DNA of 64,000 nt from a virus (IMGVR_UViG_3300032320_000315:4097-68096); one strand, 5' to 3'. Shown: positions 41,247 through 56,758, numbered from the stretch's first letter. Made by a program: numbers and translations. Notes: a model not told the origin generated them from the sequence alone.

Positions 41247-41286
41247 GAAGTATTTACCAGGGTGCGAGAGTCCTTGGCGGCGAAGC

Positions 41287-41308: not shown

Positions 41309-41334
41309 TAAGGTGCATAATATACGCACCTTAT
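41303..41334 (-). terminator. Terminator downstream of pqqA
   Basis: ATAAGGTGC/GCACCTTAT stem followed by T6 on - strand. Confidence 0.7.
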
Positions 41335-41356
41335 CGGTCTAACTTAACTACAAGAG

Positions 41357-41428
41357 TTACTTGTTCATTACGTACATAGTAACTTCAAAACCAAAACGCA
41401 TTTCTGTCGCACTAGGTTTAGTCCACAT
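41357..41428 (-). CDS. pqqA: PQQ precursor peptide PqqA (MWTKPSATEMRFGFEVTMYVMNK)
   Basis: 23 aa; MW.KP start, GFEVTMY (E-x3-Y) core; AGGAG RBS; own terminator; missed by ORF track. Confidence 0.93.
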   Translation of the reverse strand: MWTKPSATEMRFGFEVTMYVMNK

Positions 41429-41531
41429 AGTATTTCTCCTTGTTAATAACAAATTACATACTGCACTAGTATGTATCAGTAGTATAACAGAAAATACCCC
41501 TCTAAACCCTACGTAAAACCATTAAAAGACA

Positions 41532-41807
41532 TTAGTGAATTGTTTGTTCGTCCCAGGCGGTTTCCAAAGCCATCTCAAGTATCATTTCATACTGTTCACG
41601 GTCATTAACGTCACATAAACGTTGTGTAAAGTGATTGAACATGATACCAGTGATTAAGTCTGGATCTATACCTTGTTCTTCTAGTCTAGCACAGAATGTT
41701 TCAAATGTCGCTTCTAACAGCGCCGCCGTTTCATCTTCTGTGAGTTTACTAAAGTCTTCTTTGGGTATTAGATCCTGCGGTTTCTGTACTTTACTGCGTC
41801 TAGCCAT
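41532..41807 (-). CDS. Hypothetical protein
   Basis: 91 aa; AAGGAGCGA RBS. Confidence 0.7.
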   Translation of the reverse strand: MARRSKVQKPQDLIPKEDFSKLTEDETAALLEATFETFCARLEEQGIDPDLITGIMFNHFTQRLCDVNDREQYEMILEMALETAWDEQTIH

Positions 41808-41897
41808 CTCTCGCTCCTTGAATGGGTTCCTGCAGAATATAAAAATTTCTGCGCAAAAAAAATTGCTAGGGTACTTACAACAATACCCTGGCAGTTT

Positions 41898-41972
41898 TTA
41901 CCAAAGCCAATGTATATAGATAAACGCTAGAGTCAGAGCTACTATTATCATTGTACATGTTGGGTATCTCAT
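41898..41972 (-). CDS. 24-aa hydrophobic peptide MRYPTCTMIIVALTLAFIYIHWLW
   Basis: ATG just after ATAAGTA late-like motif; single TM. Confidence 0.4.
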   Translation of the reverse strand: MRYPTCTMIIVALTLAFIYIHWLW

Positions 41973-41997
41973 ACTGTACTTATCCTAGATTGAATGC

Positions 41998-42165
41998 TTA
42001 TAGTGTAACATAGTAGCAGATGGCTGTCAACACAGCACACACGTAGATCCAACCAAATTGACTCCAGTGTGTGAGATCCCTGGCTTCTGGCAGTCGCACA
42101 TAGTGATCAAAGTCGGCATCATAACGAAACCGTCCTTTTGGCGTGTCTATAATGTCCTCTTCCAT
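41998..42165 (-). CDS. 55-aa membrane-anchored hypothetical protein
   Basis: MEEDIIDTPKGRF...WIYVCAVLTAICYYVTL; AGGA RBS. Confidence 0.55.
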   Translation of the reverse strand: MEEDIIDTPKGRFRYDADFDHYVRLPEARDLTHWSQFGWIYVCAVLTAICYYVTL

Positions 42166-42169
42166 GCTG

Positions 42170-42358
42170 TTATATATCCTCTACTTGTACACAGTGTTCT
42201 GAGAATTGAAGTAGGAATACTGTGTATACCGTGCCGGGTGGGATCCAAAAACGTGTGCGATTGAGGTGTACTTCGAACTGTAGCCCATGCGCTTGAATAA
42301 AGTCAAATACTGAGCCCAGATGGTGACTGCTGTTGAGTATGTAGTAATGGTAGGGCAT
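42170..42358 (-). CDS. Hypothetical protein (62 aa)
   Basis: MPYHYYILNS start within track ORF. Confidence 0.5.
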   Translation of the reverse strand: MPYHYYILNSSHHLGSVFDFIQAHGLQFEVHLNRTRFWIPPGTVYTVFLLQFSEHCVQVEDI

Positions 42359-42614
42359 GGTAGTATATAGTGTCTGGGCCGAAAGGGTCCTAGAAGGTTT
42401 GAAAAAATAGCCGCGTAAAAATTTAATATATAGGGTATTTTTATCGACCCCAGGTGATTCTGCAACCTCAAATTTTTTGTTAGCACTGTTGTAAAAAAGC
42501 AACAGTTTTTTGTTTTACTGCCTCTCGGTCAAAATCTTTCTAAAAAAATATATTCTCCCCCTCAGGAAAATTATTTCAAAAAAATATCCCCGACCGTTGC
42601 CAGTCTAGGGATAC

Positions 42615-42643
42615 GAAAAAACCGGGAGCGAACCAGTTTTTTT
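42615..42643 (-). terminator. Terminator-like hairpin with TTCGCTC loop
   Basis: AAAAAAC-TGG-TTCGCTC-CCG-GTTTTTT on - strand, after ATPase gene. Confidence 0.65.
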
Positions 42644-42658
42644 ACTACAGCCTTACAG

Positions 42659-43510
42659 TTAACGCATAAGGCTGATCTGCGCTACCCTACGCCACTTACC
42701 CTGGGGGAAACTACGCATAAGGTCTGCTGTCTTTAGTACTGTACGCAGGCTCAGCTCACGCAAACGCCGCTTGTTCTCATCAACGAACTCCACAAGCTCT
42801 GCTTGCTCCGCATCAGTAAACTCATACTCTGCTAACATACCATCCCCAACGATCTGACGGATGCGTAGCATCTTCTCACGCTCTGTGTGGATAGTCAAGT
42901 CAATGTAATGACAGCGTGACTCAAGAGCAGCCAAGTGATCCTGCAGTTTCTTGCTCTTGATGTTTTGGAAGTTGATGTTAGTAATAAAGATAGCACCACC
43001 CTTGAACTCGAAACTGTTGGGCACACCTTCACTACGGAGTAGTCTGCTGTCAGTGTTCCAATGGATGGTACGCTTCTTGCTAGTGTCCAGTGCGGCCTTG
43101 AGAATGTTCAAGCTCAAGTCATCTAACAGTACTGAGTCACAGTCATCGAACACTAGGATGTTCTTCTCTGCTGAAAACTCATAGAGCTTTGAGTACAAGC
43201 CAATAGCACTCATAGCGCCTTTGACAATCTCATACTTCTTGAGCTTTTCATCATTGGCAATATTAGCCATCAAGTCATGCTTGCCCAAGACTTTCTCTAC
43301 ACCAAAGCTCTTGCCCACGCCTGGAGCACCCGAAACAATCATAGCACGAACAGCGCCCTTCTTTACGGCACGTGTCATGTCATCAAGTATTTCAAAACGC
43401 TCACGCAGACGTTCAATGATCTCTGCATCTGTTTCTTTTGATTGGGCTGGAGTCTCTTGCTCTAGGCTTAGTACACGATATCCAGTGGGCTTGCTATCCA
43501 ATTTAGTCAT
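42659..43510 (-). CDS. AAA+-type ATPase
   Basis: Walker A GAPGVGKS, Walker B VFDDCD, IFITN, ALESR. Confidence 0.85.
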   Translation of the reverse strand: MTKLDSKPTGYRVLSLEQETPAQSKETDAEIIERLRERFEILDDMTRAVKKGAVRAMIVSGAPGVGKSFGVEKVLGKHDLMANIANDEKLKKYEIVKGAMSAIGLYSKLYEFSAEKNILVFDDCDSVLLDDLSLNILKAALDTSKKRTIHWNTDSRLLRSEGVPNSFEFKGGAIFITNINFQNIKSKKLQDHLAALESRCHYIDLTIHTEREKMLRIRQIVGDGMLAEYEFTDAEQAELVEFVDENKRRLRELSLRTVLKTADLMRSFPQGKWRRVAQISLMR

Positions 43511-43564
43511 TCGCTCTTCCTTAGTTGGTTAAAACATTTATTATAAGGGCTTTCGCCCTCGTTG

Positions 43565-43894
43565 TCAATCTAAACGACTGCCGCTGTATGCTGTCAGTCC
43601 CATGGCCTGTAGTGCTTGAGCCATTGCATCAGCGCCGGCTTCTTTGCAGTCGATGTTCTGTACACCCAAGCCGCCTGGGTTCCACATGCTCAAACAACGT
43701 GGTTTGTAGTCTTTGCGGAAGCCTGCCTTGATCAACTCTTTGGCCTGCTTTGAGTTGGTACGATCCACGTAGACATCTACCCAGGCAAAGCCACAGGCAA
43801 ATTGATCCTGTCCGTTCAATCGCTTTTGGAAGAACTCCTGGCTGGCCTGCTCTGCTAGAGTCTTTGCTGTTTGGATCTGTTCTGCTGTAATCAT
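43565..43894 (-). CDS. Hypothetical protein
   Basis: Own promoter plus GGAGCGAA RBS. Confidence 0.75.
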   Translation of the reverse strand: MITAEQIQTAKTLAEQASQEFFQKRLNGQDQFACGFAWVDVYVDRTNSKQAKELIKAGFRKDYKPRCLSMWNPGGLGVQNIDCKEAGADAMAQALQAMGLTAYSGSRLD

Positions 43895-43937
43895 AGTTCG
43901 CTCCTATTAATTAACTGTTGAAGTATATATTATAGAC

Positions 43938-44228
43938 TCAAGCCAACTCTTTGTCAACCACTGTGAGCATATTGGCTGGCACACGCCACAGACCCATGCC
44001 CGTATCCACTGTGACGTATTTGATAGCCACTTTGACTACGAACCCACGGGTCAAGCGTCCTGTCTTTGAGCTTGTGAATTCTACATTGTCACCGCGGCTG
44101 ATTGAACGTTTGACTCGCCGGGCCAACTGCTCGCGATTCCATTTGACTGCATCTATCATGCTGGACAGTTCTACATTGGTCCACGACTGCATCATGATTG
44201 CTTGATTGACTTGCTGAATAGTTAACAT
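43938..44228 (-). CDS. Hypothetical protein (SH3-like C-terminus)
   Basis: Own promoter plus GGAGCGAA RBS. Confidence 0.75.
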   Translation of the reverse strand: MLTIQQVNQAIMMQSWTNVELSSMIDAVKWNREQLARRVKRSISRGDNVEFTSSKTGRLTRGFVVKVAIKYVTVDTGMGLWRVPANMLTVVDKELA

Positions 44229-44284
44229 AGTTCGCTCCTAAGTTCGTTACAGTTTCTATAGTATAAGCTCAGTCCCTGAGTTTG

Positions 44285-44536
44285 TCAACCCCAGTCCTTC
44301 TTATCGCCGAAACGCTCATTGTACTCGTAGCCACGGAAGTATTCACGCAACTCTTTGAGGCTCATGTCCTTGCTTTCAACACGAGTACCCTTGTAGGTAC
44401 CTTCGGGATACCAGTGTGGCTCCTGTGGGCGACCATAGTAACTGTCTGCTGACCCACGATCAAATGGGCTACCGTGCCAAGTTTCGTATGTGACACCATC
44501 CATCTTGACAGTGCGTTTTTCCATTACATCAATCAT
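44285..44536 (-). CDS. Hypothetical protein
   Basis: HGSPFDRGSADSYYGR; promoter plus GGAGCGAA RBS. Confidence 0.75.
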   Translation of the reverse strand: MIDVMEKRTVKMDGVTYETWHGSPFDRGSADSYYGRPQEPHWYPEGTYKGTRVESKDMSLKELREYFRGYEYNERFGDKKDWG

Positions 44537-44628
44537 CGTTCGCTCCTTAATTTCACTATACCTATAGTATACTACCGCTCCGTCATTCTGTCAACCGGTA
44601 GTGACCGGTGTGTTGCATAAAAACAACA

Positions 44629-44703
44629 TGGTCCGCCCTCCAGGAATCGAACCTGGATTGATCGCTTAGAAGGCGATTGTTCTATCCGTTGAACTAAGGG
44701 CAG
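44629..44703 (-). tRNA. tRNA-Arg(TCT)
   Basis: Cloverleaf, TTCGA T-loop, encoded CCA. Confidence 0.92.
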
Positions 44704-44704
44704 A

Positions 44705-44789
44705 TGGTGCGACTGACCAGAATCGAACTGGTACGACTTGCGTCGAGAGATTTTAAGTCTCTTGTGTCTACCTATTTCACCACAGTCGC
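44705..44789 (-). tRNA. tRNA-Leu(TAA)
   Basis: Long variable arm, encoded CCA. Confidence 0.92.
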
Positions 44790-44793
44790 AATC

Positions 44794-44871
44794 TGGTGGG
44801 CCCTCCGTGAGTCGAACACGGCACCAATGGATTATGAGTCCACTGCTCTAACCAACATGAGCTAAGGGCCC
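44794..44871 (-). tRNA. tRNA-Ile2(CAT) (less likely Met)
   Basis: CAT anticodon; GGGCCCTTAGCTCA 5' end typical of Ile2; CCA. Confidence 0.85.
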
Positions 44872-44878
44872 TTGTGGT

Positions 44879-45007
44879 TTACTTAGCCGCTTCCTTTGCT
44901 ACTTCTTGAATTTTAGATTTGCCGTTGTCTAGGATGTTGGCAATGCCTGAGAAGCCAACTGTGAAGAAGATACCGCCGGCGATGAATGTTACGATGTATT
45001 TTATCAT
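44879..45007 (-). CDS. 42-aa membrane peptide
   Basis: MIKYIVTFIAGGIFFTVGFSGI...; GGAGCG RBS, own promoter. Confidence 0.65.
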   Translation of the reverse strand: MIKYIVTFIAGGIFFTVGFSGIANILDNGKSKIQEVAKEAAK

Positions 45008-45079
45008 GACACGCTCCTTTACTGTTTGTTAAAGTATAACACCAAAAGGGCCTGTTGTCAAGCCCCTTGGATGCGTACC

Positions 45080-45442
45080 TTAGAACGGTGCGTCTTCGTC
45101 TTCTGCAGGAGTTGTAACACGAGGAGCCACTGCCTTGGCGGGCTTCTTAGTTACTGCCTTCTTGACTGCTTTCTTGACTTCGACTTTAGGAGCACGATCG
45201 TGCTTAGTCAAGTACTCCGCAATGGCTGTCTGCGCATCTGCATCAGAGAACTCAGGGAGAGTTGCGATGAACTTTGCAGCCTCAGTCTTGAGCATAGAAT
45301 CTGCAAGTTCCACGAGACGAATGTCTTCGTGTCCGCTTTTGGCGAGGTTTTTAACTCGCATAACATCATTGGCGAAGCGGATCTTGTAGTCGCCGTTGAG
45401 TTTAGAAACACCTGCTACTGTAAACGTTTTATCAGTTGCCAT
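45080..45442 (-). CDS. Hypothetical protein with histone-H1-like K/A/P tail
   Basis: VKKAVKKAVTKKPAKAVAPR. Confidence 0.7.
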   Translation of the reverse strand: MATDKTFTVAGVSKLNGDYKIRFANDVMRVKNLAKSGHEDIRLVELADSMLKTEAAKFIATLPEFSDADAQTAIAEYLTKHDRAPKVEVKKAVKKAVTKKPAKAVAPRVTTPAEDEDAPF

Positions 45443-45538
45443 AATTAATTGCCTTTCAAAGTTTAAAAAATTGCCTTATGCCAATTTCTTAGCATGTCCT
45501 TATTATAGTACCGAAGTACCAATTTGTCAACCACTTTC

Positions 45539-45718
45539 TTACGATTGGTTGTCCAAAATCTGCATCATTCGGACGCCACACCACATCACAGCACAGCCCA
45601 AAAAGCTCAGCAGGGTCGCTGTAGCCAATTCCGTGTCTGTGATGCTGTTTTCAATACCGCCCACTCCGCCCATAGTAAGCAGGAGTCCTGTGATCATTAA
45701 GAAGGTTGCTGAGTTCAT
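45539..45718 (-). CDS. 59-aa two-TM membrane protein
   Basis: ATGA-coupled to upstream gene; two hydrophobic segments. Confidence 0.6.
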   Translation of the reverse strand: MNSATFLMITGLLLTMGGVGGIENSITDTELATATLLSFLGCAVMWCGVRMMQILDNQS

Positions 45719-45840
45719 TGTGCCTGTCCTTTGTGTTTGGATTTACGAGTATAAGCCTTTTTGTTCTTTACAACCTTTTGCTTGAAAGGGCTGTCCTTGT
45801 GGAACAGAACAAAATGGGCACGGGTTGCCTTTAGTTTCAT
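45715..45840 (-). CDS. ArfA-like (alternative ribosome rescue factor) peptide
   Basis: LFHKDSPFKQKVVKNKKAYTRKSKHKG resembles ArfA [27 protein letters not shown]. Confidence 0.55.
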   Translation of the reverse strand: MKLKATRAHFVLFHKDSPFKQKVVKNKKAYTRKSKHKGQAQ

Positions 45841-46037
45841 TTTGAGCCTCTTACTTTGTTTCATAATACAGTTATTATACAACCAAAAGTCCAAAATGTC
45901 AACCAAAAGATTGTTGTAAAAAAGCCACAGGGTTTTGGTAAGTCTCAGTGGCATCGACTAGCAGGTTTCGTAGAGGGTTTATATAGCGGCGGACTTATAG
46001 TCTGCTCTACGGGAACGCACTTGTCCCCTCCCGCTTG

Positions 46038-46160
46038 TTACTCTTCTTCAGTCTCTTCCTCGCTGGGCGGATAGAACGCTACACTGACTCCGTCAAAGCC
46101 TTGTAGGCTATCGACTTCATACTTCACTGGGCAGGAAGCAAGCCATGTCCAAAAGTCCAT
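46038..46160 (-). CDS. 40-aa acidic peptide
   Basis: TAATG-coupled; MDFWTWLASCP...EEETEEE. Confidence 0.55.
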   Translation of the reverse strand: MDFWTWLASCPVKYEVDSLQGFDGVSVAFYPPSEEETEEE

Positions 46161-46864
46161 TACTTGTTTTCCTTGTTCAGAGATTGGCCGATGTCTTGCA
46201 GTTGCTCTGTGAGGCCCGTGGCATCTTCTTTCAATGATCCGCCACCAATCACAACGCCACCTGCGGCTTCCAGTTGATCCATGATGTTATCGGAGTCATC
46301 TTCTGCGTTATCTTCTTCCCATTCGCGGATGCTTTCGCTGATGCACATACACTCGTCGATCTCTGGGTTGATCTCTTCGGCTATTTGATCAGCAGTCATA
46401 CCGTCGAGTTCATAGTAGTCATCACCGTTCTCATCGAACAGGCCAGCGAAGCACATACCTGATTCCCAATAGATGAGCTTGACCCGAAAGCCCAAGTCCA
46501 TGAACTTCTCCATGGCGGCCACAGGCGGTGCCCAGGCTGAGTCAAAACTCATGCGGAGAGCATTAGGACCATCTTCGGTGATCATACCGTCATCACCACC
46601 TACATCCCACTTGGTGCCCCACTCGTTGACGCAGTAGTCATACCAGTTGCCATAGCCATGAACCTCTAGGTTACGGGCTGTGTCCTCTTCGAGCTTCTTC
46701 TGCTCGTCCGGGTCACCCACAGAACCTGCTACGATATGCAGACTCTTAGGCACTGGGCAGAACTCATCAAGCAAGCGACCATCAACATAAGCCTTCTTGG
46801 CCCTCTCGATCATCGCTGGATCTTCATGCTCAAGTTCCAAATAGTTATTGCACCAATTAGGCAT
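46160..46864 (-). CDS. DUF1281/YubB ferredoxin-like family protein
   Basis: MPNWC.N, WY.....WGTKWD, F.SAWAPP, Y.E.GM.F.G. Confidence 0.75.
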   Translation of the reverse strand: MPNWCNNYLELEHEDPAMIERAKKAYVDGRLLDEFCPVPKSLHIVAGSVGDPDEQKKLEEDTARNLEVHGYGNWYDYCVNEWGTKWDVGGDDGMITEDGPNALRMSFDSAWAPPVAAMEKFMDLGFRVKLIYWESGMCFAGLFDENGDDYYELDGMTADQIAEEINPEIDECMCISESIREWEEDNAEDDSDNIMDQLEAAGGVVIGGGSLKEDATGLTEQLQDIGQSLNKENK

Positions 46865-47195
46865 TCTCAATCTCCTTCAGAGTTAAACGGGTTGCGGGAT
46901 ATACGATACGACCTTCATACTCCAACTGACTCTGCTCAAAGTCAGTGAGATAGTCGTCTGCTACCACTTCCCAACCAATGATATGGTTGCGATAGTAGTC
47001 ATTGTCTTCTTCAATCTGGCCACGGAAGTGCTCTACCAACTCAGCCAGTGCTTCGGCATTACGCATCACAGAGCCTAGGTCATACTTATAATCCTGGCCG
47101 CCCTTGAACTTCCAATACTGTGGGCAAGAGCCTTCACCGTCCCAATCATGGGCACCGTAGTTCTCTTGGGTCTGTGTTGTGATTAATAGTTGCAT
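46857..47195 (-). CDS. Hypothetical protein
   Basis: ENYGAHDWDG.G.CPQYWKFKGG; GGAGCGAA RBS. Confidence 0.75.
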   Translation of the reverse strand: MQLLITTQTQENYGAHDWDGEGSCPQYWKFKGGQDYKYDLGSVMRNAEALAELVEHFRGQIEEDNDYYRNHIIGWEVVADDYLTDFEQSQLEYEGRIVYPATRLTLKEIENA

Positions 47196-47254
47196 CAGTT
47201 TCGCTCCTGTTTTGCTAGTCTATGTATATATTATACGGCCAGTCCGCCAATTTG

Positions 47255-47491
47255 TCAACCTAGGGCTTTTAATAACCCTACAACGCATAGGACTATTGCT
47301 ACTCCGTTAATGATCATCTGTGGCTTATTTGCCACACGATAACTCCATGCGAAGAAGCAAAGGCCCCCTAAGAGTGCTACAGAGTTCCTAAGGTTGTCAT
47401 AGCCCGGAAAGAAGTTGGATATGACATACATCGTTAGGATGAATGCTGTGCCCAGCCACTGTATTGTTTCGTTGATATCTAATTTCTTCAT
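47255..47491 (-). CDS. Small multi-TM membrane protein, leaderless
   Basis: Three hydrophobic helices; ATG 7 nt after -10 box. Confidence 0.65.
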   Translation of the reverse strand: MKKLDINETIQWLGTAFILTMYVISNFFPGYDNLRNSVALLGGLCFFAWSYRVANKPQMIINGVAIVLCVVGLLKALG

Positions 47492-47693
47492 GTTAATAGT
47501 ATAGCACCAGCCCACCAAAATGTCAACCGGTAGTGACCGGTAACCCTACAGTTTGGCAGGGTACTCAAGGTGAACCCCCTGTTGCTTTTACACAACAGAG
47601 GGTTCGGTGGCCTACCCGGGAGCGAATCGGTTCAGCCGTTGCCTAGGGGAGCGAATCCTAGGACTTCGCATCGTCGTCGCGACGAGCTTATTC

Positions 47694-47966
47694 TTAGAGG
47701 CTAATGCCTAATGCTTTAGCCTTGTAGCCTAGAGCTACGATTTCACGGCTTGGCATGCCCATTTCGTACTCAGTAACGGTAACACCGTTGCCTGCTGTAC
47801 GGCTGTTCGCATAAACAGCGTAACCGCTGTGACGAATGCGACTGGCTTCTGCTGCCAAGTTCTTAACACCAAAACGCTTCTGCGCTTGAGCGGCGGTTAA
47901 CTTCTCGCCATTGTAAAGTGCGTTGAACACTTTGAAAGTCTTAGTTTCTGGATTGAATCTTTTCAT
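47694..47966 (-). CDS. Winged helix-turn-helix DNA-binding protein
   Basis: L..GE.LT..QA..RFGVKNLAA..SRIR..GYAV; own promoter, GAGG RBS. Confidence 0.75.
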   Translation of the reverse strand: MKRFNPETKTFKVFNALYNGEKLTAAQAQKRFGVKNLAAEASRIRHSGYAVYANSRTAGNGVTVTEYEMGMPSREIVALGYKAKALGISL

Positions 47967-48045
47967 TTTGTTTCCTCTGTTTAATAGTGCTGATGTTCCG
48001 TCAGCGTCCTACTAGTATAGCACCTTTGCAGTAAAGGTCAACGGT

Positions 48046-48261
48046 CTACTTTACCGAATCAATTACATCTTTAGCCAAATCAGTGTCCATTACTGTATCC
48101 ATTTGAGCAGCCACTAGGAGCTCAAACACCACACGGGCCTGCCCACGACTACGTTTGGGTAGGTTGCTCATGAAGTCCTGTACCTCTTCCATGCTGTCCA
48201 AAGCCCAAAGCCTATTGGCCAAGGCCCTCTGCTGTTTGGATAGACCTTCTAGTACTATCAC
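48046..48261 (-). CDS. Hypothetical protein
   Basis: Coupled small ORF. Confidence 0.6.
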   Translation of the reverse strand: MIVLEGLSKQQRALANRLWALDSMEEVQDFMSNLPKRSRGQARVVFELLVAAQMDTVMDTDLAKDVIDSVK

Positions 48262-48488
48262 GAGTTCACCGTTTCAAAAGGGCTGAGTTCCTCAACCATT
48301 CTATCAAATACAGCCTCGGACACAGCAGGGTCCTGCTGTTCCTCTACACCGTTCATCTCCATCCAGGCATGGACATAGCTCTCTGGGATGTCCAAAACAT
48401 CTGCAATCTTGTAGGCGCTCCAGCCATTGATGTACATTTGTTCAATGTCGTATGCATACATATCCAATTCAGCCATCTTACTCATCAA
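48258..48488 (-). CDS. Hypothetical protein with short HTH-like segment
   Basis: GWSAYKIADVLDIPESYV. Confidence 0.6.
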   Translation of the reverse strand: MMSKMAELDMYAYDIEQMYINGWSAYKIADVLDIPESYVHAWMEMNGVEEQQDPAVSEAVFDRMVEELSPFETVNS

Positions 48489-48693
48489 AGGCCTCCTCGC
48501 CCATTTCGGTTACTGTTTCATTTACAATGCCCAAGTCCTTGATGCGGGCTGTTTGATCTTCGTTTGATACACCCTGGAAGGCTGTACGGAACGACTGATG
48601 CTCTGCTAAGAAGTCAAATACATCATATCGATCCCAACTCTCTGGAACTTCAAGCTCTTGGTATAGCTCTGTGCGTACGATTACTTTTTTCAT
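48478..48693 (-). CDS. Hypothetical protein
   Basis: GGAGG RBS; start MKKVIVRT. Confidence 0.6.
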   Translation of the reverse strand: MKKVIVRTELYQELEVPESWDRYDVFDFLAEHQSFRTAFQGVSNEDQTARIKDLGIVNETVTEMGEEAFDE

Positions 48694-49181
48694 GCTACCT
48701 CCTCGGGCTTGAACTTCTTCATTGCAGTTGCCAAACGCTTCCAGCGTCCGTTTTCGCGTGTATGATAGAACCACTTGCCTGTTTCCATGTTGTCATCGTA
48801 CTTGAACAGATAGAAGTATTCGCACCAACTGCCGTCGTAGTATGCTTGGGCTTCCTTAATAGTTGGGAAAAACTTATAAGGAGCATCCTCGCCTCTGTCG
48901 CGTGTGTAAAAGGTACACATATCCTCAACAGTCTTTTCGTATGCTTCGCGCTCGTCTTTGTCTTTAATCTCAAGCGAGCTGAACAAGTGCTTGTCGCCAA
49001 TCTCTGGGCGTAGGCTAGACAAGTCACCCAGGGCAATCAGGTTGTTGACCTTAGGACTTGCTGAATAGTGTTTGTTGAGGATACTGCCGTTGTGCTGGAG
49101 ATAGCCATCCCAGTGACAGTAGATTGCCTTAACGGCTTTGCTATTTGGATTTTCAATAGCAATCATTGAACGTGTACCCAT
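48690..49181 (-). CDS. Conserved phage hypothetical protein
   Basis: MGTRSMI, IYCHWDGY, EY.YLF; GGAGCGAA RBS. Confidence 0.75.
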   Translation of the reverse strand: MGTRSMIAIENPNSKAVKAIYCHWDGYLQHNGSILNKHYSASPKVNNLIALGDLSSLRPEIGDKHLFSSLEIKDKDEREAYEKTVEDMCTFYTRDRGEDAPYKFFPTIKEAQAYYDGSWCEYFYLFKYDDNMETGKWFYHTRENGRWKRLATAMKKFKPEEVA

Positions 49182-49254
49182 TTGTTTCGCTCCTTAATGT
49201 GTTACAGTTTCTATAGTATAAGTCCATTTGGGGGATTTGTCAACCCCCCAAATA

Positions 49255-49620
49255 TTACCCTTCCAACGCGGCGGTGTATTGCTCTACCGCAATCTCTTTG
49301 AACGAGCGCAGGAACATAGGGCCTACGTCTAGCGATACATAGTTGTCGCCCTGCATACCCTGTTCGCTGTACTCCACGTCAACGCTGTTCAGCCCAGCGG
49401 CCAACAGTTCTCCGCAGAGTTCGTCTAAGAACTGGCTGTCCGTATAGATCAACCCGTCCTTGCGAACGTCCCATTGCTTGTCAAAGTACACGCAGAGCTC
49501 ACCAAAGTCTTCTTCCTCATTGATGTAGGTCACTGCAATGCCTGTGACGTTTACTTTCTTCGCAACGTCCGACCAGTAGCCATCACCAGCCGTTTCCAGT
49601 ACACAATTGAATTTGATCAT
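49255..49620 (-). CDS. Hypothetical protein
   Basis: GLIYTD, YSEQGMQG; own promoter, GGAGCG RBS. Confidence 0.7.
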   Translation of the reverse strand: MIKFNCVLETAGDGYWSDVAKKVNVTGIAVTYINEEEDFGELCVYFDKQWDVRKDGLIYTDSQFLDELCGELLAAGLNSVDVEYSEQGMQGDNYVSLDVGPMFLRSFKEIAVEQYTAALEG

Positions 49621-49682
49621 CATCGCTCCTATGTTGTTCAAGTGTTAATTATAGCACAGAAGGGAACCATTGTCAATCTATG

Positions 49683-49950
49683 TCTACCTATACGAACGTC
49701 TCGTATAGGCCTTGACGGTCATTACTGCCTACATGCTCCGCCGCAACTCCGGGCCTCTGCCCTGTTTCATGCTCCTGGACTTGACCAGCGCCCGTCGGTA
49801 CTGTCGTCATCCCAATCGCCTAGCGGTGTAGGTAACCCTAATTCATTTGCTTAGGCAGAGTCTCCAAACTCTCTCCGTATCCCTTGGCTACGACCCTTTT
49901 TGCATTTCTGCGTGGGTCCTTGCATTTGAGGATCGCCTTGCTTTCTAACT
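49683..49950 (-). ncRNA. Candidate structured non-coding RNA (about 270 nt)
   Basis: Dedicated TTGACA-17-TACAAT promoter, no RBS-led ORF, several stems, terminal hairpin. Confidence 0.45.
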
Positions 49951-49981
49951 GTTCTTATTGTACAACCACCTGGCCAAACTG

Positions 49982-50212
49982 TCAATCAATAACCACAACA
50001 GCCTTAAGGTTATCTTCGGGCTCCTCGTCAAAGTCAGGCTCTACGAGCTTGTCCATGCGATGGTAGTCGCTGTACCGTACGAAGCCCATGTCCACACGGC
50101 CTACACTAGGGGCTACCTGTGTACGCCAATGATCCCCGTACCCATAGGCAAAGTGTACATCCAAATCACCATCCATGCCCTGTAGGGCTTCAATCAATTC
50201 AGATACTTTCAT
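49982..50212 (-). CDS. Hypothetical protein
   Basis: AAGGAGC RBS; coupled. Confidence 0.7.
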   Translation of the reverse strand: MKVSELIEALQGMDGDLDVHFAYGYGDHWRTQVAPSVGRVDMGFVRYSDYHRMDKLVEPDFDEEPEDNLKAVVVID

Positions 50213-50478
50213 GCTTGCTCCTTAAAGACTACCATTTGCATTTTGTTACGGGCGCGATCCTCTACGAACGCATAATTGTTTTCAAACTCCACGTTGGGGT
50301 TACTGAGGATCTTCTTTGCAATGATTCGTACACTGCGCTCGTTGATGCTGTCTGTGACATCATAGCCCGGGCCATGATTCTCTGCACCGTCTGCGGTGTA
50401 GGAATACTTGCCATTGCAACCGCACATACAGCCAATTCGTCCGTTATAGACTTTGACAATCTTATCTATGTTCAACAT
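50209..50478 (-). CDS. Hypothetical protein
   Basis: GCMCGCNGKY; promoter plus GGAGCGAA RBS. Confidence 0.75.
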   Translation of the reverse strand: MLNIDKIVKVYNGRIGCMCGCNGKYSYTADGAENHGPGYDVTDSINERSVRIIAKKILSNPNVEFENNYAFVEDRARNKMQMVVFKEQA

Positions 50479-50571
50479 AAGTTCGCTCCTTTTGTTTAAC
50501 TTAGCCTATAGTATACTACCACTTCTAACCGGTGTCAACCGGTTTGTTGAATAACCCTACTGCCCTTAGGG

Positions 50572-50865
50572 TTATTTTTTGCTGTATTCTACGCTGGGCA
50601 ACTCGGCTACCCACTTCTGGTAGTTACGATCATGATCATCCAAGGGTACCCTGCCGAACTCTTTGACTAGATAGAAACGCATAAGCTCACGCTGGATTAG
50701 GCTTATGACATTGTCATCACCATTGAATAGTACGAACTGCACAGGGCATCCACTCCAATTACGATCCTTTAGGAAGCGGTGTGCCCACTTGCGGTGCTGG
50801 GCATTAGAAGAATCAAAGATCACATGGGGCCTCGCATAGGCTGATAATAGGTTGTTACTCATCAA
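50572..50865 (-). CDS. Hypothetical protein
   Basis: Coupled ORF with downstream hairpin. Confidence 0.65.
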   Translation of the reverse strand: MMSNNLLSAYARPHVIFDSSNAQHRKWAHRFLKDRNWSGCPVQFVLFNGDDNVISLIQRELMRFYLVKEFGRVPLDDHDRNYQKWVAELPSVEYSKK

Positions 50866-51152
50866 TCAATTTCAGGGAACACGCTACGAACATGCTCTTC
50901 TGCCTTGTTAATTTCAATTGGGTTTAGAACTTGTGGAACATTCTGCAGAGCCGTATCCTTGCCATAGGACTGTATGTTGGCACGTGCCAGGGCAAAGATC
51001 TCCCGCTTGTTGGCACCACAGATGATGCTGATAGGGTCAGGTTCAGCCTTGACCATATCCAGGGCATACATGGTTAGAGTATGGCAGTCTACTGCCACTT
51101 CCATCTTCATTGTGATGCGCCTTACGCCATCTGGATGCTTAACTGCTTTCAT
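50862..51152 (-). CDS. Hypothetical protein, leaderless
   Basis: ATG 7 nt after -10 box. Confidence 0.6.
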   Translation of the reverse strand: MKAVKHPDGVRRITMKMEVAVDCHTLTMYALDMVKAEPDPISIICGANKREIFALARANIQSYGKDTALQNVPQVLNPIEINKAEEHVRSVFPEID

Positions 51153-51184
51153 AGTCGTATATTAACACCGGTCATGACCGGTTG

Positions 51185-51325
51185 TCAACCCACAATGGCT
51201 ATGAAGTTGCCCGAACCATACTGGCCCTCAGCAATCTGCCTAGCATAGCCGCTACTGATAGCAGAGATCTGTACATCTGTGAAACTGCCGTTAGGCAGTC
51301 TCACTCTTACAATATATGTCGTCAT
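51185..51325 (-). CDS. 46-aa hypothetical protein
   Basis: MTTYIVRVRLPNG...; stop lies inside next TTGACA. Confidence 0.6.
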   Translation of the reverse strand: MTTYIVRVRLPNGSFTDVQISAISSGYARQIAEGQYGSGNFIAIVG

Positions 51326-51326
51326 A

Positions 51327-51590
51327 TTAGTTGAACTCGTAAAAGGTTACACTAGGGTCAATGCTTTGCAGTTCGCGAGCCGCACGTGTCAGGAACTGAT
51401 AGCGTTGTTGGACCTGGCTGCGGCTCAGTTCGCCGTCGCAGGTAAGGTTCTCTGGGCTGAGCTCTGCGTCAATTGAATCTGCAATCTTCTGACGATCCTT
51501 TGCATTCAACAGGCTCAGGGGTGCAGTGCCAAACAGTTTGGCGAAACTGTTCTTACGCTCTACATATTGCTCAATGGTTGCTATGTTCAT
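51327..51590 (-). CDS. Hypothetical protein
   Basis: LSPENLTCDGE; promoter plus GGAGCG RBS. Confidence 0.75.
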   Translation of the reverse strand: MNIATIEQYVERKNSFAKLFGTAPLSLLNAKDRQKIADSIDAELSPENLTCDGELSRSQVQQRYQFLTRAARELQSIDPSVTFYEFN

Positions 51591-51726
51591 ATCGCGCTCC
51601 TTTTTGTTTAACTTAGCCTATAGTATAGCACCGGTCAGGACCGGTGTCAACCGGTTTTGGTTGTTGTATTTTTGCAACACACCGGTCACTACCGGTTGAC
51701 ATAGACAGGGACCTTTGCTATACTAT

Positions 51727-51815
51727 GATAGTCGAACAGAGGGGGGTGGACGTGGAGGGTGCCTGCCGGATCTAGAGTCTGAACCAAAAAAATGGGCACC
51801 CTTAGGCGCCCTAAA
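51727..51815 (+). ncRNA. Candidate small RNA 1
   Basis: TTGACA-17-TATACT promoter; motif TGGACGTGGAGGGTGCCTG shared with 53653. Confidence 0.45.
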
Positions 51816-51828
51816 ATATGAACACACT

Positions 51829-52026
51829 TTAATCTAACCAACAGTCCTCTGCTCGCTGAACAGTGGTATCCTGCCCACCAATATAGCCACCTTCAAAGCC
51901 GTTGGGCCCTGCTTCTAGGAACAGCCTATCGCCCTCTATGCGATAGATCCTGCCCGACTGTTCGATGTCGCATTTAAACGACACCCAGTCCCCAATCTTT
52001 ACTGTTTCTCCGTCTACTCTAGCCAT
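51829..52026 (-). CDS. Hypothetical protein (SH3-like)
   Basis: GGAG RBS; coupled. Confidence 0.6.
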   Translation of the reverse strand: MARVDGETVKIGDWVSFKCDIEQSGRIYRIEGDRLFLEAGPNGFEGGYIGGQDTTVQRAEDCWLD

Positions 52027-52295
52027 TACATACTCCAGTAGGATTCTGATGCTGGTGAACAATAGTGTGGAGTGTCATAACGCTCTGTGAACTCGCCACC
52101 ACCCATTAGGTTCTGCTTGGTCACATAGGTTTCGTGTATCTCATAGCGGAACCCGTGTAACTGTCTGTAGGTGTTCTTTACAGTATGCTCCAGCATGGTC
52201 AGCTCTGTGACATTGTAGTCATTCTTACTGACCAGTCGCTCGCCCTTCTTAGTACGAGCATCCTTCTTGTAGATTTCAACGGTATAGGTAGTCAT
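52026..52295 (-). CDS. Hypothetical protein
   Basis: ERYDTP.YCSPASESYWSM. Confidence 0.7.
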   Translation of the reverse strand: MTTYTVEIYKKDARTKKGERLVSKNDYNVTELTMLEHTVKNTYRQLHGFRYEIHETYVTKQNLMGGGEFTERYDTPHYCSPASESYWSM

Positions 52296-52489
52296 TGTGC
52301 AAAGATCTCCTTAGAAAGAATCTTGTCTTCAACCAATTGGTTGCAGGCGTTAAGAGTCAGTTGGAATACCAAATACATCTGAGCTTTCTGCTCTGGAGGA
52401 AAGCCTTCGATTTGATCTGCAATCTGCTCCAGGGTTGGAGTAGCAAATAGCCCGCTACGGGGGATTGGGTTTTGAACTATATCATACAT
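52292..52489 (-). CDS. Hypothetical protein
   Basis: Promoter plus GGAGCGAA RBS. Confidence 0.7.
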   Translation of the reverse strand: MYDIVQNPIPRSGLFATPTLEQIADQIEGFPPEQKAQMYLVFQLTLNACNQLVEDKILSKEIFAQ

Positions 52490-52537
52490 CGGTTTCGCTC
52501 CTTATTAATTACTATACCTACAGTATAACACCGGTCA

Positions 52538-52720
52538 CTACCGGTTGTCAACCTCTATCTTTAGATTATCCATGACGGCTTCCAGGGTATCATAGGCCAT
52601 TTGCCAGCGATCACCCTCTATGTTATAGATCTGATTGACGGCATCATTCAGGGTAGCCACAGCCATCTTCTTACGATACTCCAAGTCCTCCAACATCAAG
52701 TCCTCTTGTGGGTTATACAT
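52538..52720 (-). CDS. Hypothetical protein
   Basis: GGAGG RBS; TAATG-coupled. Confidence 0.65.
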   Translation of the reverse strand: MYNPQEDLMLEDLEYRKKMAVATLNDAVNQIYNIEGDRWQMAYDTLEAVMDNLKIEVDNR

Positions 52721-53439
52721 TATGCCACCTCCTTCACGCGGATTACGAATCCACTGTAGTCCTTCTTAGCACGGCCCTTGGCCTTGAGCCCTAGCATAAT
52801 GCCCTTAGGGTCTAGGAAGCGCAGATCAGTTTCATCAGCACTGGGTACACCTGCTGGGATCTCATCGTAGACAGCCACTACACTCAAGCCTTGTGCCAGC
52901 GCCTTAGTGACATCAGCATCGTTGCCGTCTGCTTTAGAGAACGTCAAGTGGTAGTTTGGGTACTGGCTGACCTTACGACCCAGAACCTTTGTATAGTCAT
53001 AGAACTGTACATCGCTGAACACTTGAAAGATGTTAAGGAACTCGTCTTCGCTGTCGCCCAAGTTCGTATCGTATTTCTCCCAGCTCAAATCACTAGTGCC
53101 ATTTAAACGGAACACTGGAGTCAAGCCTTGCTTCTTAGCGAACTTGATAGCCTTAAAGATGTCGCTAACCAAATCAGCCATAAAGCCATCGCGATCTTCA
53201 AAGAAGTACTTGGTCTTACGAATGCGAGCCTTTTGGATCATGTTGGTCTTTTCGCCCTTCTTGAACATACCGCCACGACCGGCAGTATTAAGGCAAGCGG
53301 CAGTACACCCAGCCGTCCGTTTAGGGCAAGTCTCACGACCCGATAAGTCAGCAGGTGCAAGATGTAATATGAAAGAAAGATAGCCCATCTTAGTACCCTT
53401 TTGGATCTTAGGATTGGCAGTACTTAATAGTTTGAACAT
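52720..53439 (-). CDS. GP88-family (radical-SAM-like, Cys-rich) protein
   Basis: CP.RT.GC.AACLNTAGRG, FRLNGTSD, FYDYTK, YHLTFS. Confidence 0.75.
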   Translation of the reverse strand: MFKLLSTANPKIQKGTKMGYLSFILHLAPADLSGRETCPKRTAGCTAACLNTAGRGGMFKKGEKTNMIQKARIRKTKYFFEDRDGFMADLVSDIFKAIKFAKKQGLTPVFRLNGTSDLSWEKYDTNLGDSEDEFLNIFQVFSDVQFYDYTKVLGRKVSQYPNYHLTFSKADGNDADVTKALAQGLSVVAVYDEIPAGVPSADETDLRFLDPKGIMLGLKAKGRAKKDYSGFVIRVKEVA

Positions 53440-53584
53440 AGTTTCGCTCCTTTTGTTTAACTTAGCCTATAGTATAGCAAGGGTCAGAACCTTTGTCAAT
53501 CGGTCACTACCGAATACCCAGACGAATAGACGGGACTTTCGGTCACTACCGGTTGACGTATCCCAGGAGTGGCAGTATACTATA

Positions 53585-53700
53585 AACACTAAGAGAGCGA
53601 AGAAAACTAAAAGGTCTTAGTCATCGGTGGGTTCGAACAGACATGCTGGGGATGGACGTGGAGGGTGCCTGAAGGGTTTTCCGGTGCAAAAAAACAACAG
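53585..53700 (+). ncRNA. Candidate small RNA 2
   Basis: TTGACG-17-TATACT promoter; same 19-nt motif and TCGAACAGA as RNA 1. Confidence 0.4.
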
Positions 53701-54101
53701 AATTTCAAAGACCTGGTTGACAAAAGGGTTGTAGACTGAAAACAACAGATACCGGTCGCTACCGATGTGGCTTTAGAACAACGGTTTTTCACGATCTAGA
53801 TGCGAATGATTCTTATTTAGACCGCCGGTAACGACCGCTTTCTCAGTAGGGTCATTGATCTATACTAGAGTCTTCACTGTGATATAGTGGGTTCACAGTC
53901 AGGAGGCTGTACCGGTACTGACCGGTTATGCTGAAAACAGTGAGAAATATGCACCGGTCATGACCGAAATATGCAGAGTGGTCGCTACCGGCGGTCATTA
54001 CCGGTACAGTCATTCGTGGTTTCTCCGCAACGGTAACTACCGGTTTTCATAGGTTTGACAGAGAATTCGGTTGACACCGCCGAGAGGCATAGTTCAAATA
54101 C

Positions 54102-54401
54102 TCACCCACCATTCTTTACCGTTTTCTTTATCTTACGCTTGACCTTGGCCACAGTCTTACGCACTGGTTCAGGGGGTACTATCCATCCAGGAATGTTCTG
54201 TTCAGGCTCTGCATATGGTGTTAGTTCTGGCTCTGGCACCGGCTCGGGCTCAGTAGGTATAGTCTGCAACTGCTGTTCTTGCTGTTGCCGCTCTTGTTCG
54301 AACTCCCACTCATCAGTTGAAACCCAAAGATAAGCCGCCATGATCACAGTGATCACTAGTGTGCGTTTGAGATAGGTTAGCCAAAGCGGTTCGAATATCA
54401 T
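54102..54401 (-). CDS. Membrane-anchored hypothetical protein with Q/E/P-rich linker, leaderless
   Basis: N-terminal TM; ATG just after TATAAT. Confidence 0.6.
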   Translation of the reverse strand: MIFEPLWLTYLKRTLVITVIMAAYLWVSTDEWEFEQERQQQEQQLQTIPTEPEPVPEPELTPYAEPEQNIPGWIVPPEPVRKTVAKVKRKIKKTVKNGG

Positions 54402-54576
54402 ACCTAATTATAGCAGAATCCTACAGCGGGGTCTACAGTTTATCTAGCCAAATCTTGTGTACACACGTAGATTCTGCCAAACCCAACAGCGGGGCCTAGC
54501 AGATATTGTGTTCTATATTAGCGTTCGGCCCGAGAATGGTGTGTTACTGTAGAATGCTACAGCGGGGCCTTTGGGT

Positions 54577-54622
54577 TATAGTGCTCTATAGTGCTCTATA
54601 GTGCTCTATAGTGCTCTATAGT
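54577..54622 (+). repeat. Tandem 10-mer (GTGCTCTATA)x4
   Basis: Exact tandem array. Confidence 0.9.
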
Positions 54623-54625
54623 CAA

Positions 54626-54847
54626 TTATAGTGGATATACGTTAGTGTTATTAACTAACTCAATCTGTGGTTCCCAATCTGTGGCTCTAAGGAACTGTTG
54701 TTGATTAAGTCTCTGTGCAAATGCCTGGGCCATCTGCTCTGCCAACTGTTTACTGGTAATTGGACGACCCTTTAGCTCATCTTCAGCCATCTCTCTCTGT
54801 GTTTGATTGCGTGTGCGACTGTATGCGTGTATGGCATAGAACATCAT
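54626..54847 (-). CDS. Hypothetical protein
   Basis: 73-aa ORF. Confidence 0.55.
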   Translation of the reverse strand: MMFYAIHAYSRTRNQTQREMAEDELKGRPITSKQLAEQMAQAFAQRLNQQQFLRATDWEPQIELVNNTNVYPL

Positions 54848-54926
54848 AGTATTATCCTTTATTAATGGTTAAGGGCCAATTGCTACAGCGGGGCCTATAA
54901 CATATTTAACGAATTTGCGTTGCAAA

Positions 54927-54948
54927 TTTTTTGCGCTGGCGCTTCGCG
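54927..54948. repeat. Right copy of 22-bp inverted repeat
   Basis: TTTTTTGCGCTGGCGCTTCGCG. Confidence 0.85.
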
Positions 54949-54977
54949 CTCTTCGAGCGCACGGGGACTCTTGGCGC

Positions 54978-54997
54978 TGTGGATAACCTGTGGATAA
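54978..54997. promoter_or_regulatory. Tandem perfect DnaA boxes
   Basis: TGTGGATAA-CC-TGTGGATAA (two copies of TTATCCACA on - strand). Confidence 0.7.
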
Positions 54998-55021
54998 GTA
55001 TTGTATATAGGGAGCGACTCT

Positions 55022-55222
55022 ATGCTGGTAAAGTGTTATAGACTGTGGAGCAACGATTGGCAAGAACTGGATCGTTTGGGTCTCTATGTTCAGCGTGTAG
55101 GCGGATGGTGCAGTATTGGAGTCTGCTGTGTGGACTTCTATGTACCCGAAACTCAAGACGGTATGTTCCTATTAATGAACGATCAACTACAGTATCGATG
55201 GAGGGATTCATGGATAGTCTAA
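55022..55222 (+). CDS. Hypothetical protein
   Basis: ATAAGTA motif plus GGAGCGA RBS before ATG. Confidence 0.6.
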   Translation: MLVKCYRLWSNDWQELDRLGLYVQRVGGWCSIGVCCVDFYVPETQDGMFLLMNDQLQYRWRDSWIV

Positions 55223-55392
55223 CTAGAATACGTGCCTATGACTTCAGTCTGGAACAGTTAAATCGTGTGCATGATTTGAACTGTACAGGCTACTTCCACA
55301 TCATACACATACAGTACGATGATCTCACTGATCACTATGTTACTCTGTTAGAGTGTGATGATCGCTTGGCCACTTGGATAGCACTACTATGA
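55210..55392 (+). CDS. Hypothetical protein
   Basis: GGAGG RBS; 60 aa. Confidence 0.55.
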   Translation: MDSLTRIRAYDFSLEQLNRVHDLNCTGYFHIIHIQYDDLTDHYVTLLECDDRLATWIALL

Positions 55393-55653
55393 CCCAGCGT
55401 CGACGTCGTCCTGGCGACTCTGTTGATACTGTGCGAAAAGCCTAGTCACTGCTTCCATCTGTTCCTGGAACACATGCGGGGCTGCCGTGGCCGCTTGTTG
55501 CATGTCCCAATCCGTGGGAAAGTGTCTAAGTATTGCTCGGGCTTCCTGTCGTATCTTCAAAGGCACACGGGGAGTTTCACTAGAATAACTGAGGCTCTGT
55601 AGGAAACGAGCCGCCCACATCACTGCACGATAGCGTTCATCAGGTAGGGTCAT
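55387..55653 (-). CDS. BPSL0761-like hypothetical protein
   Basis: MTLPDERYRAV...ILRHFP. Confidence 0.6.
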   Translation of the reverse strand: MTLPDERYRAVMWAARFLQSLSYSSETPRVPLKIRQEARAILRHFPTDWDMQQAATAAPHVFQEQMEAVTRLFAQYQQSRQDDVDAGS

Positions 55654-56733: not shown

Positions 56734-56758
56734 AGCAGTCTCCAGTTTAAATATTTAA

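Follow-up and report, generated by a model that had tools for sequence, protein, structure and literature searches.

An extended Shine-Dalgarno word and hairpin loops displaying its exact complement in a clade of uncultured jumbo phages: a candidate anti-ribosome-binding-site RNA

The 64,000-nucleotide stretch of viral DNA analyzed here (IMGVR_UViG_3300032320_000315:4097-68096; hereafter the window) contains, between 41.5 and 57 kb, a leftward (minus-strand) run of small genes with three tRNA genes, which we call the early block. Genes of this block that directly follow a promoter tend to start behind a common ribosome-binding site (RBS) word, GGAGCGAA, in which the Shine-Dalgarno (SD) core GGAG is extended by CGAA; we refer to this word as the tag. 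Two genes of the block, encoding an AAA-type ATPase and a winged helix-turn-helix (wHTH) protein, are followed by hairpins whose apical loops display the exact complement of the tag. Both elements are conserved in related phages, and we propose that the loops might pair with tagged RBSs and damp the translation of early genes.

The locus and its relatives

The window is part of a 68-kb IMG/VR viral contig. Its related contigs span 265-356 kb, and we therefore assign it to a clade of uncultured jumbo phages. The closest cultured relative of the ATPase gene is found in Pseudomonas phage PA5oct (49% identity), and more distant homologues are spread across T4-like phages. A megablast comparison of the block with cultured phages returned tRNA similarity only. 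PA5oct contains the word once, judged to be a chance copy, and its published transcriptome is therefore uninformative here.

For comparison we used 80 loci chosen by ATPase homology (63-97% amino acid identity), and tag contexts were counted on the gene strand in the window plus these loci. The region is missing from the contig of the clade with the most distant ATPase. Two nearly complete relatives, of 345 and 356 kb, contain 9 and 17 copies of the word, respectively, most of which are clustered in a single stretch of ~10-15 kb; the larger genome has roughly 10 RBS-type and 2-4 loop-type sites. An exact 15-mer scan of viral contigs included chance matches in GC-rich contigs, with an expected background of similar order, and ~85 of its 118 new loci were assigned to the same phage group by reading of contexts only. 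By this estimate, word and complement occur together in some 85 viral contigs beyond the relatives chosen by ATPase homology.

A shared SD extension at promoter-proximal starts

GGAGCGAA or its complement TTCGCTCC has 11 exact matches in the 64 kb, whereas 100 shuffles yielded 0.85 on average and never more than 3. Eight of them are minus-strand copies of GGAGCGAA that serve as RBSs, each 2-4 nt ahead of an ATG (Table 1). The remaining three are the complement, UUCGCUCC on the minus strand, and lie in hairpin loops (42625, 47619 and 47648). Variants with one or two changed bases precede five further minus-strand starts and one plus-strand start; the one at 43510 belongs to the start region of the ATPase gene. 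A preliminary description of the window had reported the shared word on at least 11 genes, which the exact copies and variants bear out. Its listed sites are real, but it left out 51593 (GGAGCGCG) and the ATPase start at 43510 (AGAGCGAA). It was also right that CGAA cannot pair with the anti-SD of 16S rRNA, in that CGAA does not extend the pairing with the canonical 16S 3' tail.

The tagged starts are linked to promoters. Seventeen minus-strand sites between 43540 and 53499 match TTGACA-17-TATA(A/C)T at 11 or 12 of 12 positions, and the window has 50 promoter-like sites in total, compared with 23 in shuffles. All eight exact tags sit in the ~24-nt leader of a near-consensus sigma70 promoter whose -10 box is 29-34 nt from the ATG; over 12 window cassettes this distance is 24-34 nt. 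Window genes with no detected promoter of their own have ordinary SDs (e.g., GGAGGT, GGAGAT or GAGGAGG), and on the plus strand, which encodes the structural genes, CGAA follows none of 16 GGAG-type RBS candidates. The tag is limited to promoter-proximal genes and is no general RBS of the block.

The same arrangement was found in the relatives. A start codon within 1-5 nt and an open reading frame (ORF) of at least 35 amino acids follow 263 of 264 distinct tag contexts, and the start is ATG in 258 of these 263 (98%). A sigma70-like promoter lies upstream of 246 of the 264 tags (93%), its -10 box ending 17-24 nt away, and the distance from the -10 box to the ATG has its mode at 30-32 nt. When promoter-proximal starts were collected without conditioning on the tag, 248 of 418 distinct starts had the core GGAGCG (the exact tag in 169, GGAGCGAn in 55 and GGAGCGnn in 24). 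The leaders are A/C-rich, G-poor and otherwise unconserved, and the fixed 8-mer within diverging leaders indicates that the 8-mer itself is under selection. Homogenization of cassettes probably also contributes, because three window leaders (53499, 51650 and 50538) are obviously paralogous, with the common sequence ataggctaagttaaacaaaa. The least conserved tag position is the 8th base (A 310, C 43, G 33, T 18), which is the partner of U1, the sole position of the loop with observed variation (to A).

The next most common GGAG extensions in the related loci L009-L088 are GGAGCAGA (54 contexts) and GGAGCACA (45 contexts). No complementary hairpins were found for either in these loci, and the two words may mark a second class of starts. 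In a further locus of the 356-kb relative (L089; G002:278000-280000), two GGAGCGAA words separated by 40 nt lie in a leader whose gene is divergent from one for a CspA-like cold-shock protein. What seemed to be an additional tandem pair at ~278.9 kb of this genome consists of plus-strand tags in a leader and is no hairpin-type site.

Hairpins that expose the complement of the tag

The three hairpins with the same 7-nt complementary loop, one after the ATPase gene and a tandem pair after the wHTH gene, are present as first described (Table 1). Among the relatives, TTCGCTCC is the most common NNNNCTCC 8-mer on the sense strand, occurring in 94 distinct contexts while the runner-up occurs in 45. 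Nearly all complement copies lie in apical loops, within a module RY-CCG-A-UUCGCUC-C-CGG-Y. The 15-mer CCGATTCGCTCCCGG is invariant in an alignment of 30 sequences, with CCGA...CCGG in 30 of 30. The base of the loop is an A.C in 96 of 120 contexts and sometimes a G-C, as in hairpin 1, and an unpaired C lengthens the complement to 8 nt. Below the module follows an outer stem of 6-11 bp with lineage-specific sequence; internal loops are conserved, one class having RUAARY at the 5' side and another GYAA at the 3' side.

A check of covariation in related genomes had been set beforehand, and its outcome supports the hairpin structure: the loops are invariant and the outer stems covary. A covariance model aligned 63 matches, representing 38 distinct rows, in which the outer stems have 118 double-change cells, a value attained by none of 500 shuffles (shuffled value, 57), and a covariation score of 0.45 compared with 0.16, in an alignment that was fitted to the structure and hence somewhat favors it. 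One inner pair alternates between G-C (22) and A-U (12). A control slid by one column also scores high because bulge lengths vary. In the window, hairpin 1 with its neighboring hairpin has a predicted folding energy of -26.3 kcal/mol (z = -3.56) on the minus strand and -16.9 kcal/mol (z = -2.08) on the plus strand.

Hairpin 1 together with the second hairpin qualifies as an intrinsic terminator, and the tandem pair (47609-47662) has no U-run. In the relatives, 24 distinct loop contexts are followed within 28 nt by five or more consecutive T. A TGTTG-N8-CAACA hairpin recurs at 47572-47605 and 42485-42506 and in relatives, for example at ~4745-4775 of L058, where it comes after the wHTH-linked loop and is followed by a U-run.

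A search of 40000-58000 against Rfam (E ≤ 1) gave no match at the hairpins; only three tRNAs exceeded gathering scores. Mimicry of a tRNA T-arm (T-Psi-C-R-A-N-N, with A58 and G53-C61 closure) was considered and rejected: UUCGCUC has a C at the A58 position, and ARAGORN and Rfam call only the three tRNAs.

Table 1. Tags, cassettes, hairpins and carrier genes of the early block (positions on the plus strand of the window)
Feature	Position	Strand	RBS word (position)	ATG	Remarks
Variant tag	41805..41817	-	GGAGCGAG (41810)	41807	No promoter by the criterion used
Terminator	42578..42612	-			Second hairpin plus U-run; intrinsic terminator closing the ATPase 3' untranslated region
Hairpin 1	42616..42643	-			Stem AAAAAACUGG/CCGGUUUUUU; 7-nt loop UUCGCUC closed by G-C; 16 nt past the ATPase stop
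ATPase gene	42659..43568	-	AGAGCGAA (43510-43517)		AAA-type, 283 aa, phrog_1250; own promoter; start-region word overlaps the ATG
Cassette	43892..43957	-	GGAGCGAA (43897-43904)	43894	
Cassette	44226..44288	-	GGAGCGAA (44231-44238)	44228	
Cassette	44534..44594	-	GGAGCGAA (44539-44546)	44536	
Cassette	45005..45061	-	GGAGCGTG (45010-45017)	45007	Variant tag
Cassette	47193..47258	-	GGAGCGAA (47200-47207)	47195	
Long hairpin	47572..47605	-			TGTTG...CAACA, past the loops; no U-run here, terminator in relatives
Hairpin 2b	47609..47638	-			GGCU-GAA-CCG-A-UUCGCUC-C-CGG-GUA-GGCC; inner module is the family consensus
Hairpin 2a	47642..47662	-			CCUAGG-A-UUCGCUC-C-CCUAGG; in tandem with 2b, after the wHTH gene
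wHTH gene	47694..48041	-	AGAGGAAAC (untagged)		HTH_39; own promoter; 5' leader hairpin; conserved loop carrier
Cassette	49179..49243	-	GGAGCGAA (49186-49193)	49181	
Cassette	49618..49676	-	GGAGCGAT (49622-49629)		Variant tag, then ATGATG
Cassette	50476..50538	-	GGAGCGAA (50482-50489)	50478	
Cassette	51588..51650	-	GGAGCGCG (51593-51600)	51590	Variant tag
Cassette	52487..52551	-	GGAGCGAA (52494-52501)	52489	ACCGGT-N4-ACCGGT hairpin in promoter spacer
Cassette	53437..53499	-	GGAGCGAA (53443-53450)	53439	TTGACA-17-TATACT; GP88-family gene, 239 aa
Variant tag	55011..55024	+	GGAGCGAC (55011)	55022	66-aa ORF

The loops lie downstream of two genes, one of which avoids the tag

In the relatives, the ATPase gene is tagged, as GAGCGA(A), in 26 of 34 cases, and the loops linked to it begin 8-99 nt past its stop codon (35 loci), with two loops 43-84 nt apart in 32 of the 35. 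No sigma70-like promoter lies between the gene and the loops in any of these 35 loci. The loops would hence be 3' untranslated region (3' UTR) elements, and the ATPase mRNA would have the tag at its 5' end and the anti-tag at its 3' end.

The wHTH gene is the main carrier. At least one exact loop was found within 200 nt downstream of its homologues (65-87% identity) in 74 of 76 loci, at offsets of 8-47 nt, and in all 27 loci that had not been selected via the motif, at 25-41 nt. A hairpin ~800 nt past the ATPase gene in a more distant clade is likewise the wHTH-linked one. The wHTH gene itself was tagged in none of 56 distinct upstream regions, as would be expected if self-pairing were harmful. 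Its SD in the relatives is always of the AAAGGAAAC type. The leader of the gene contains a conserved stem-loop, ACGCUG-N7-9-CAGC, a few nucleotides past the -10 box (47989-48006 on the minus strand, and in 56 related loci), which could be a 5' stabilizing hairpin.

Could tag and loop be unrelated features? The tag would then be only the strong RBS of cassettes resembling the PeSL cassettes of T4-type phages, homogenized by recombination among them, the hairpins would be terminators or elements of stability or processing, and their complementarity would be incidental. The cassettes do match the PeSL description in their near-perfect sigma70 boxes and their terminal SD with ATG, stem-loops adjoin or lie within some of the promoters, several leaders are plainly paralogues and many of the hairpins are terminators. 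However, the 8-mer is fixed while the leaders diverge, and exact reverse complementarity between two independent 8-mers has a chance of 1 in 65,536. A plain terminator would not need a loop that stays invariant over ~94 contexts with freely varying stems, and incidental complementarity does not explain why the carrier gene avoids the tag. We regard a coincidence of this kind as improbable.

The transcribed strand

The preliminary description left open which strand is transcribed into the hairpins. Several features favor the sense (minus) strand. Within the outer stems, 31 internal G.U pairs with Watson-Crick neighbors on both sides compare with 11 A.C positions (counted since they would be G.U on the other strand), and GU and UG cells are frequent in the model alignment. 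In the relatives, the distal hairpin has U-runs behind it on the sense strand, and the z-score of hairpin 1 points the same way. A plus-strand terminator (42485-42506) stands just before hairpin 1, and no strong plus-strand promoter was found near the hairpins. The only feature for the plus strand is the closing A.C, which would read G.U there; because this closing G.U favors the plus strand, a comparison of the minimum free energies of the two strands is uninformative.

These findings bear on an alternative raised at the outset, that the hairpins, read on the plus strand, have GAGCGAA in their loops and are decoys, by analogy with Csr/Rsm, for a protein that binds RBSs. The G.U at the base of the loop would then give a 4-bp inner stem. 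The G.U bias of the outer stems, the restriction of the U-runs to the sense strand and the plus-strand terminator ahead of hairpin 1, with no strong promoter on that strand nearby, all speak against such a decoy. Moreover, the CsrA family (PF02599) is absent from four related records while control genomes were positive, a result that bears on a phage rather than a host CsrA. We consider a plus-strand decoy very improbable.

A candidate anti-RBS RNA

How might tag and loop work together? We hypothesize that the early block is composed of PeSL-like cassettes, each with a sigma70 promoter, a ~24-nt G-poor leader, an RBS and an ATG, and that CGAA behind the SD core GGAG would serve as an address tag on most promoter-proximal genes. 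The wHTH and ATPase transcripts would end in structured 3' UTRs whose apical loops expose UUCGCUC(C). By pairing with the tagged RBSs over 7-8 bp, at ~-12 kcal/mol against ~-6 to -8 kcal/mol for SD:anti-SD, the loops would block access of the 30S subunit, and the translation of tagged early genes would be damped or shut off. Consistent with this, the predicted energy of the 8-mer duplex is -12.4 kcal/mol, compared with -6.2 to -7.6 kcal/mol for AAGGAG with the canonical 16S tail, and the loops are predicted to be unpaired (P = 0.95-0.98). In cis, this route would be open to the ATPase mRNA, which holds both elements, as icaR mRNA does; other tagged genes might be reached by read-through transcripts that include loops along with tags farther downstream, or by 3' fragments that accumulate. 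For action in trans, 3' fragments that are stable and end in the terminator and a U-tail could resemble small RNAs derived from 3' UTRs.

That the loops occlude tagged RBSs and damp early-gene translation, as an anti-RBS RNA, is the simplest reading. Both the structural facts and the tag avoidance of the carrier gene fit it, and we hold it with about even confidence. What the comparison shows is the motifs with their positions and conservation, the hairpin structure, the strand and the gene linkage; we infer the pairing, its inhibitory sign and its action in cis or in trans. The bolder version, in which a 3' UTR-derived RNA from the untagged wHTH and the ATPase transcripts silences exactly the tagged RBSs in trans as a clade-wide address-tag regulon, is tentative and on balance doubtful. 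It is close to what the preliminary description had envisaged, a global translational switch by RNAs from 3' UTRs. Of this proposal, the conserved tag and complement and the sense-strand 3' UTR loops with no promoter of their own have stood up. The word "global" is too strong, because only ~10-20 promoter-proximal genes per ~350-kb genome are tagged, with 3-5 loops; a regulon of promoter-proximal early genes would be the better term.

Several observations weigh against occlusion of the RBSs by the loops. A clade with matching changes in tag and loop, which would have demonstrated the pairing by covariation, was not found, and the loop variant AUCGCUC (four loci) is unmatched by GGAGCGAU tags. 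The tandem pair is no more stable than shuffles in the window (z = -0.42); its support comes from the relatives. The predicted accessibility of tagged RBSs in leader-plus-coding-sequence constructs is low, a crude measure to which we give no weight. The phage would also produce the loops along with the early mRNAs, and for a timed "switch" one would have to assume something more, for example differential stability. Finally, conservation of the A.C below the loop and of the UAA and GYAA internal loops hints at a protein or tertiary contact beyond antisense pairing.

This last point leads to the possibility that a single factor recognizes both tag and loop, the hairpin being the RNA site of a phage or host protein (e.g., the wHTH protein or an RNA chaperone) or the 8-bp word being a double-stranded DNA site read both ways. 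Conservation of the flanks beyond the 8-mer, the internal loops, the retained A.C and the tight linkage to the wHTH gene could all be accounted for in this manner. A single RNA-binding protein, however, would not bind a sequence and its complement, and a DNA site leaves unexplained the fixed antisense orientation, the display in loops, the covarying stems and the G.U bias. Moreover, the distance of the tag from the ATG (1-5 nt) varies less than its distance from the -10 box (17-24 nt). We consider a protein-mediated system rather unlikely.

Antisense pairing could also have the opposite sign, with the loop protecting or activating the tagged mRNA, for example by shielding GGAG from an endonuclease or by joining the mRNA ends for stability. 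The structural evidence is the same as for inhibition, the ATPase mRNA has both tag and loops, and a stabilizing contact between 5' and 3' UTRs has precedent in hbs (PMC5737220). Pairing would cover the SD itself, though, which normally blocks initiation, and the avoidance of the tag by the wHTH gene fits inhibition better than benefit. A RegB-like nuclease was not found: neither the RegB nor the RegA family was detected in four related records, which are weak negatives, as control genomes gave no match either. We think a protective or activating role quite improbable.

Four further identities for the words were considered and rejected. A boxA/nut-like site has only CGCUC in common, a MotA-box middle promoter would lack a -10 element at the required distance and a put-like antiterminator would leave the complementarity unexplained; the fourth was the 16S helix-24 word GGAGCRAA.

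Other features of the block

ACCGGT-N4-ACCGGT-type hairpins adjoin the -35 box or occupy the spacer at some promoters, not all (47526, 44594, 52551, 51650, 53499, +51696 and +53553); the palindromes lie at 47527-47540, 44595-44608, 52529-52545 and 51627-51643. They could be PeSL-type stem-loops or operators. The minus-strand promoter at 47526-47498 is followed by an ATG at 47491, 7 nt past the -10 box and with no SD, and the 78-aa gene starting there may be leaderless. The only strong plus-strand sigma70-like promoters in the block, at 51696 and 53553, are antisense or divergent to early genes; the latter is followed by AGAGCGAA at 53594. Two direct TGTGGATAA repeats (DnaA-box-like) at 54979-54998 on the plus strand lie just upstream of the gene with the variant GGAGCGAC.

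The tRNA genes of the early block (44629-44871, minus strand; Arg-TCT, Leu-TAA and Met-CAT) resemble tRNAs of Acinetobacter T4-like phages. At 40596-41318, the minus strand encodes a 240-aa protein with a BPL_N/GATase-like N-terminal domain. Its gene is convergent with a 2262-aa ORF (33834-40622, plus strand) at the end of the structural block.

Comparison with known systems

Phage early shut-off is known mainly through proteins, for example RegA, RegB and Alc. RegB and RegA of T4, a phage that uses the host RNA polymerase, shut off early mRNAs post-transcriptionally at the RBS (GGAG). Both act as proteins, whereas RNA loops are proposed here. Host-encoded RNAs offer another parallel: RNAIII and the Rsa RNAs of Staphylococcus aureus target SDs with UCCC loops, their hairpins being followed by a terminator. 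Their targets are generic G-rich SDs, whereas here specificity would rest on the 4-nt CGAA extension.

The closest precedent for the hairpin half of the system is the icaR mRNA of S. aureus, in which a 3' UTR motif, UCCCCUG, is the complement of the mRNA's own SD region and pairs with the 5' UTR (PMC3868564). The ATPase mRNA resembles it in having a complement of its own SD region in the 3' UTR. In contrast, icaR is a single bacterial gene, whereas here one loop word faces a tag shared by many genes, and its main carrier, the wHTH gene, is untagged.

The RBS half has two precedents in phages. In T4-type phages, PeSL cassettes repeat TTGACA-N17-TATAAT, small stem-loops and an SD with ATG at the 3' end in intergenic regions; their neighbors are small ORFans in an early region that is plastic, and a role in recombinational shuffling and termination has been proposed (PMC2839356, PMC4122927). 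The cassettes described here are similar, with sigma70 boxes at 17-nt spacing in an ORFan-rich early block and an SD and start at the 3' end. In the portions of the PeSL accounts covered, unlike here, neither an SD extension nor an SD-complementary loop is described.

The second is the start-associated sequence (SAS) of cluster K mycobacteriophages, an asymmetric SD-core word located 3-7 bp before starts, preferably ATG, and confined to the genome half with non-structural genes; 16S rRNA cannot pair with its conserved positions, and rare copies occur in the opposite orientation (PMC3203893). It has been known since 2011 without function, partner or mechanism. Like SAS, the tag is an SD-core word close to starts (1-5 nt), which are nearly all ATG (258/263), and it is restricted to non-structural genes. 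The SAS consensus GGGATAGGAGCCC is not matched by the word found here, (A)AGGAGCGAA, and phage group and host differ. SAS also have no tie to sigma70 promoters, and a complementary hairpin partner has not been described for them, whereas the tag has both.

The preliminary description held that no phage system of this form had been described. SAS, PeSLs and icaR qualify that view for the separate halves, but the combination, a shared SD extension on promoter-proximal genes with invariant complementary loops in the 3' UTRs of two genes, was not found described; a literature search for the words gave unrelated primer matches only.

In summary, a start-associated word is accompanied here by a conserved structured RNA in which its exact complement is exposed, and this RNA motif is unmatched in Rfam. 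The hypothesis that follows is concrete and cheaply testable, the promoters and SD being canonical enough for Escherichia coli reporters. If it is correct, a very short antisense seed would owe specificity at the level of a regulon to a 4-nt extension of the SD, which would be a useful orthogonal part for translational control. In its bolder form, with silencing in trans, the system would be an RNA-only counterpart of early shut-off by T4 RegA and RegB and would point to the type of partner that might be sought for SAS.

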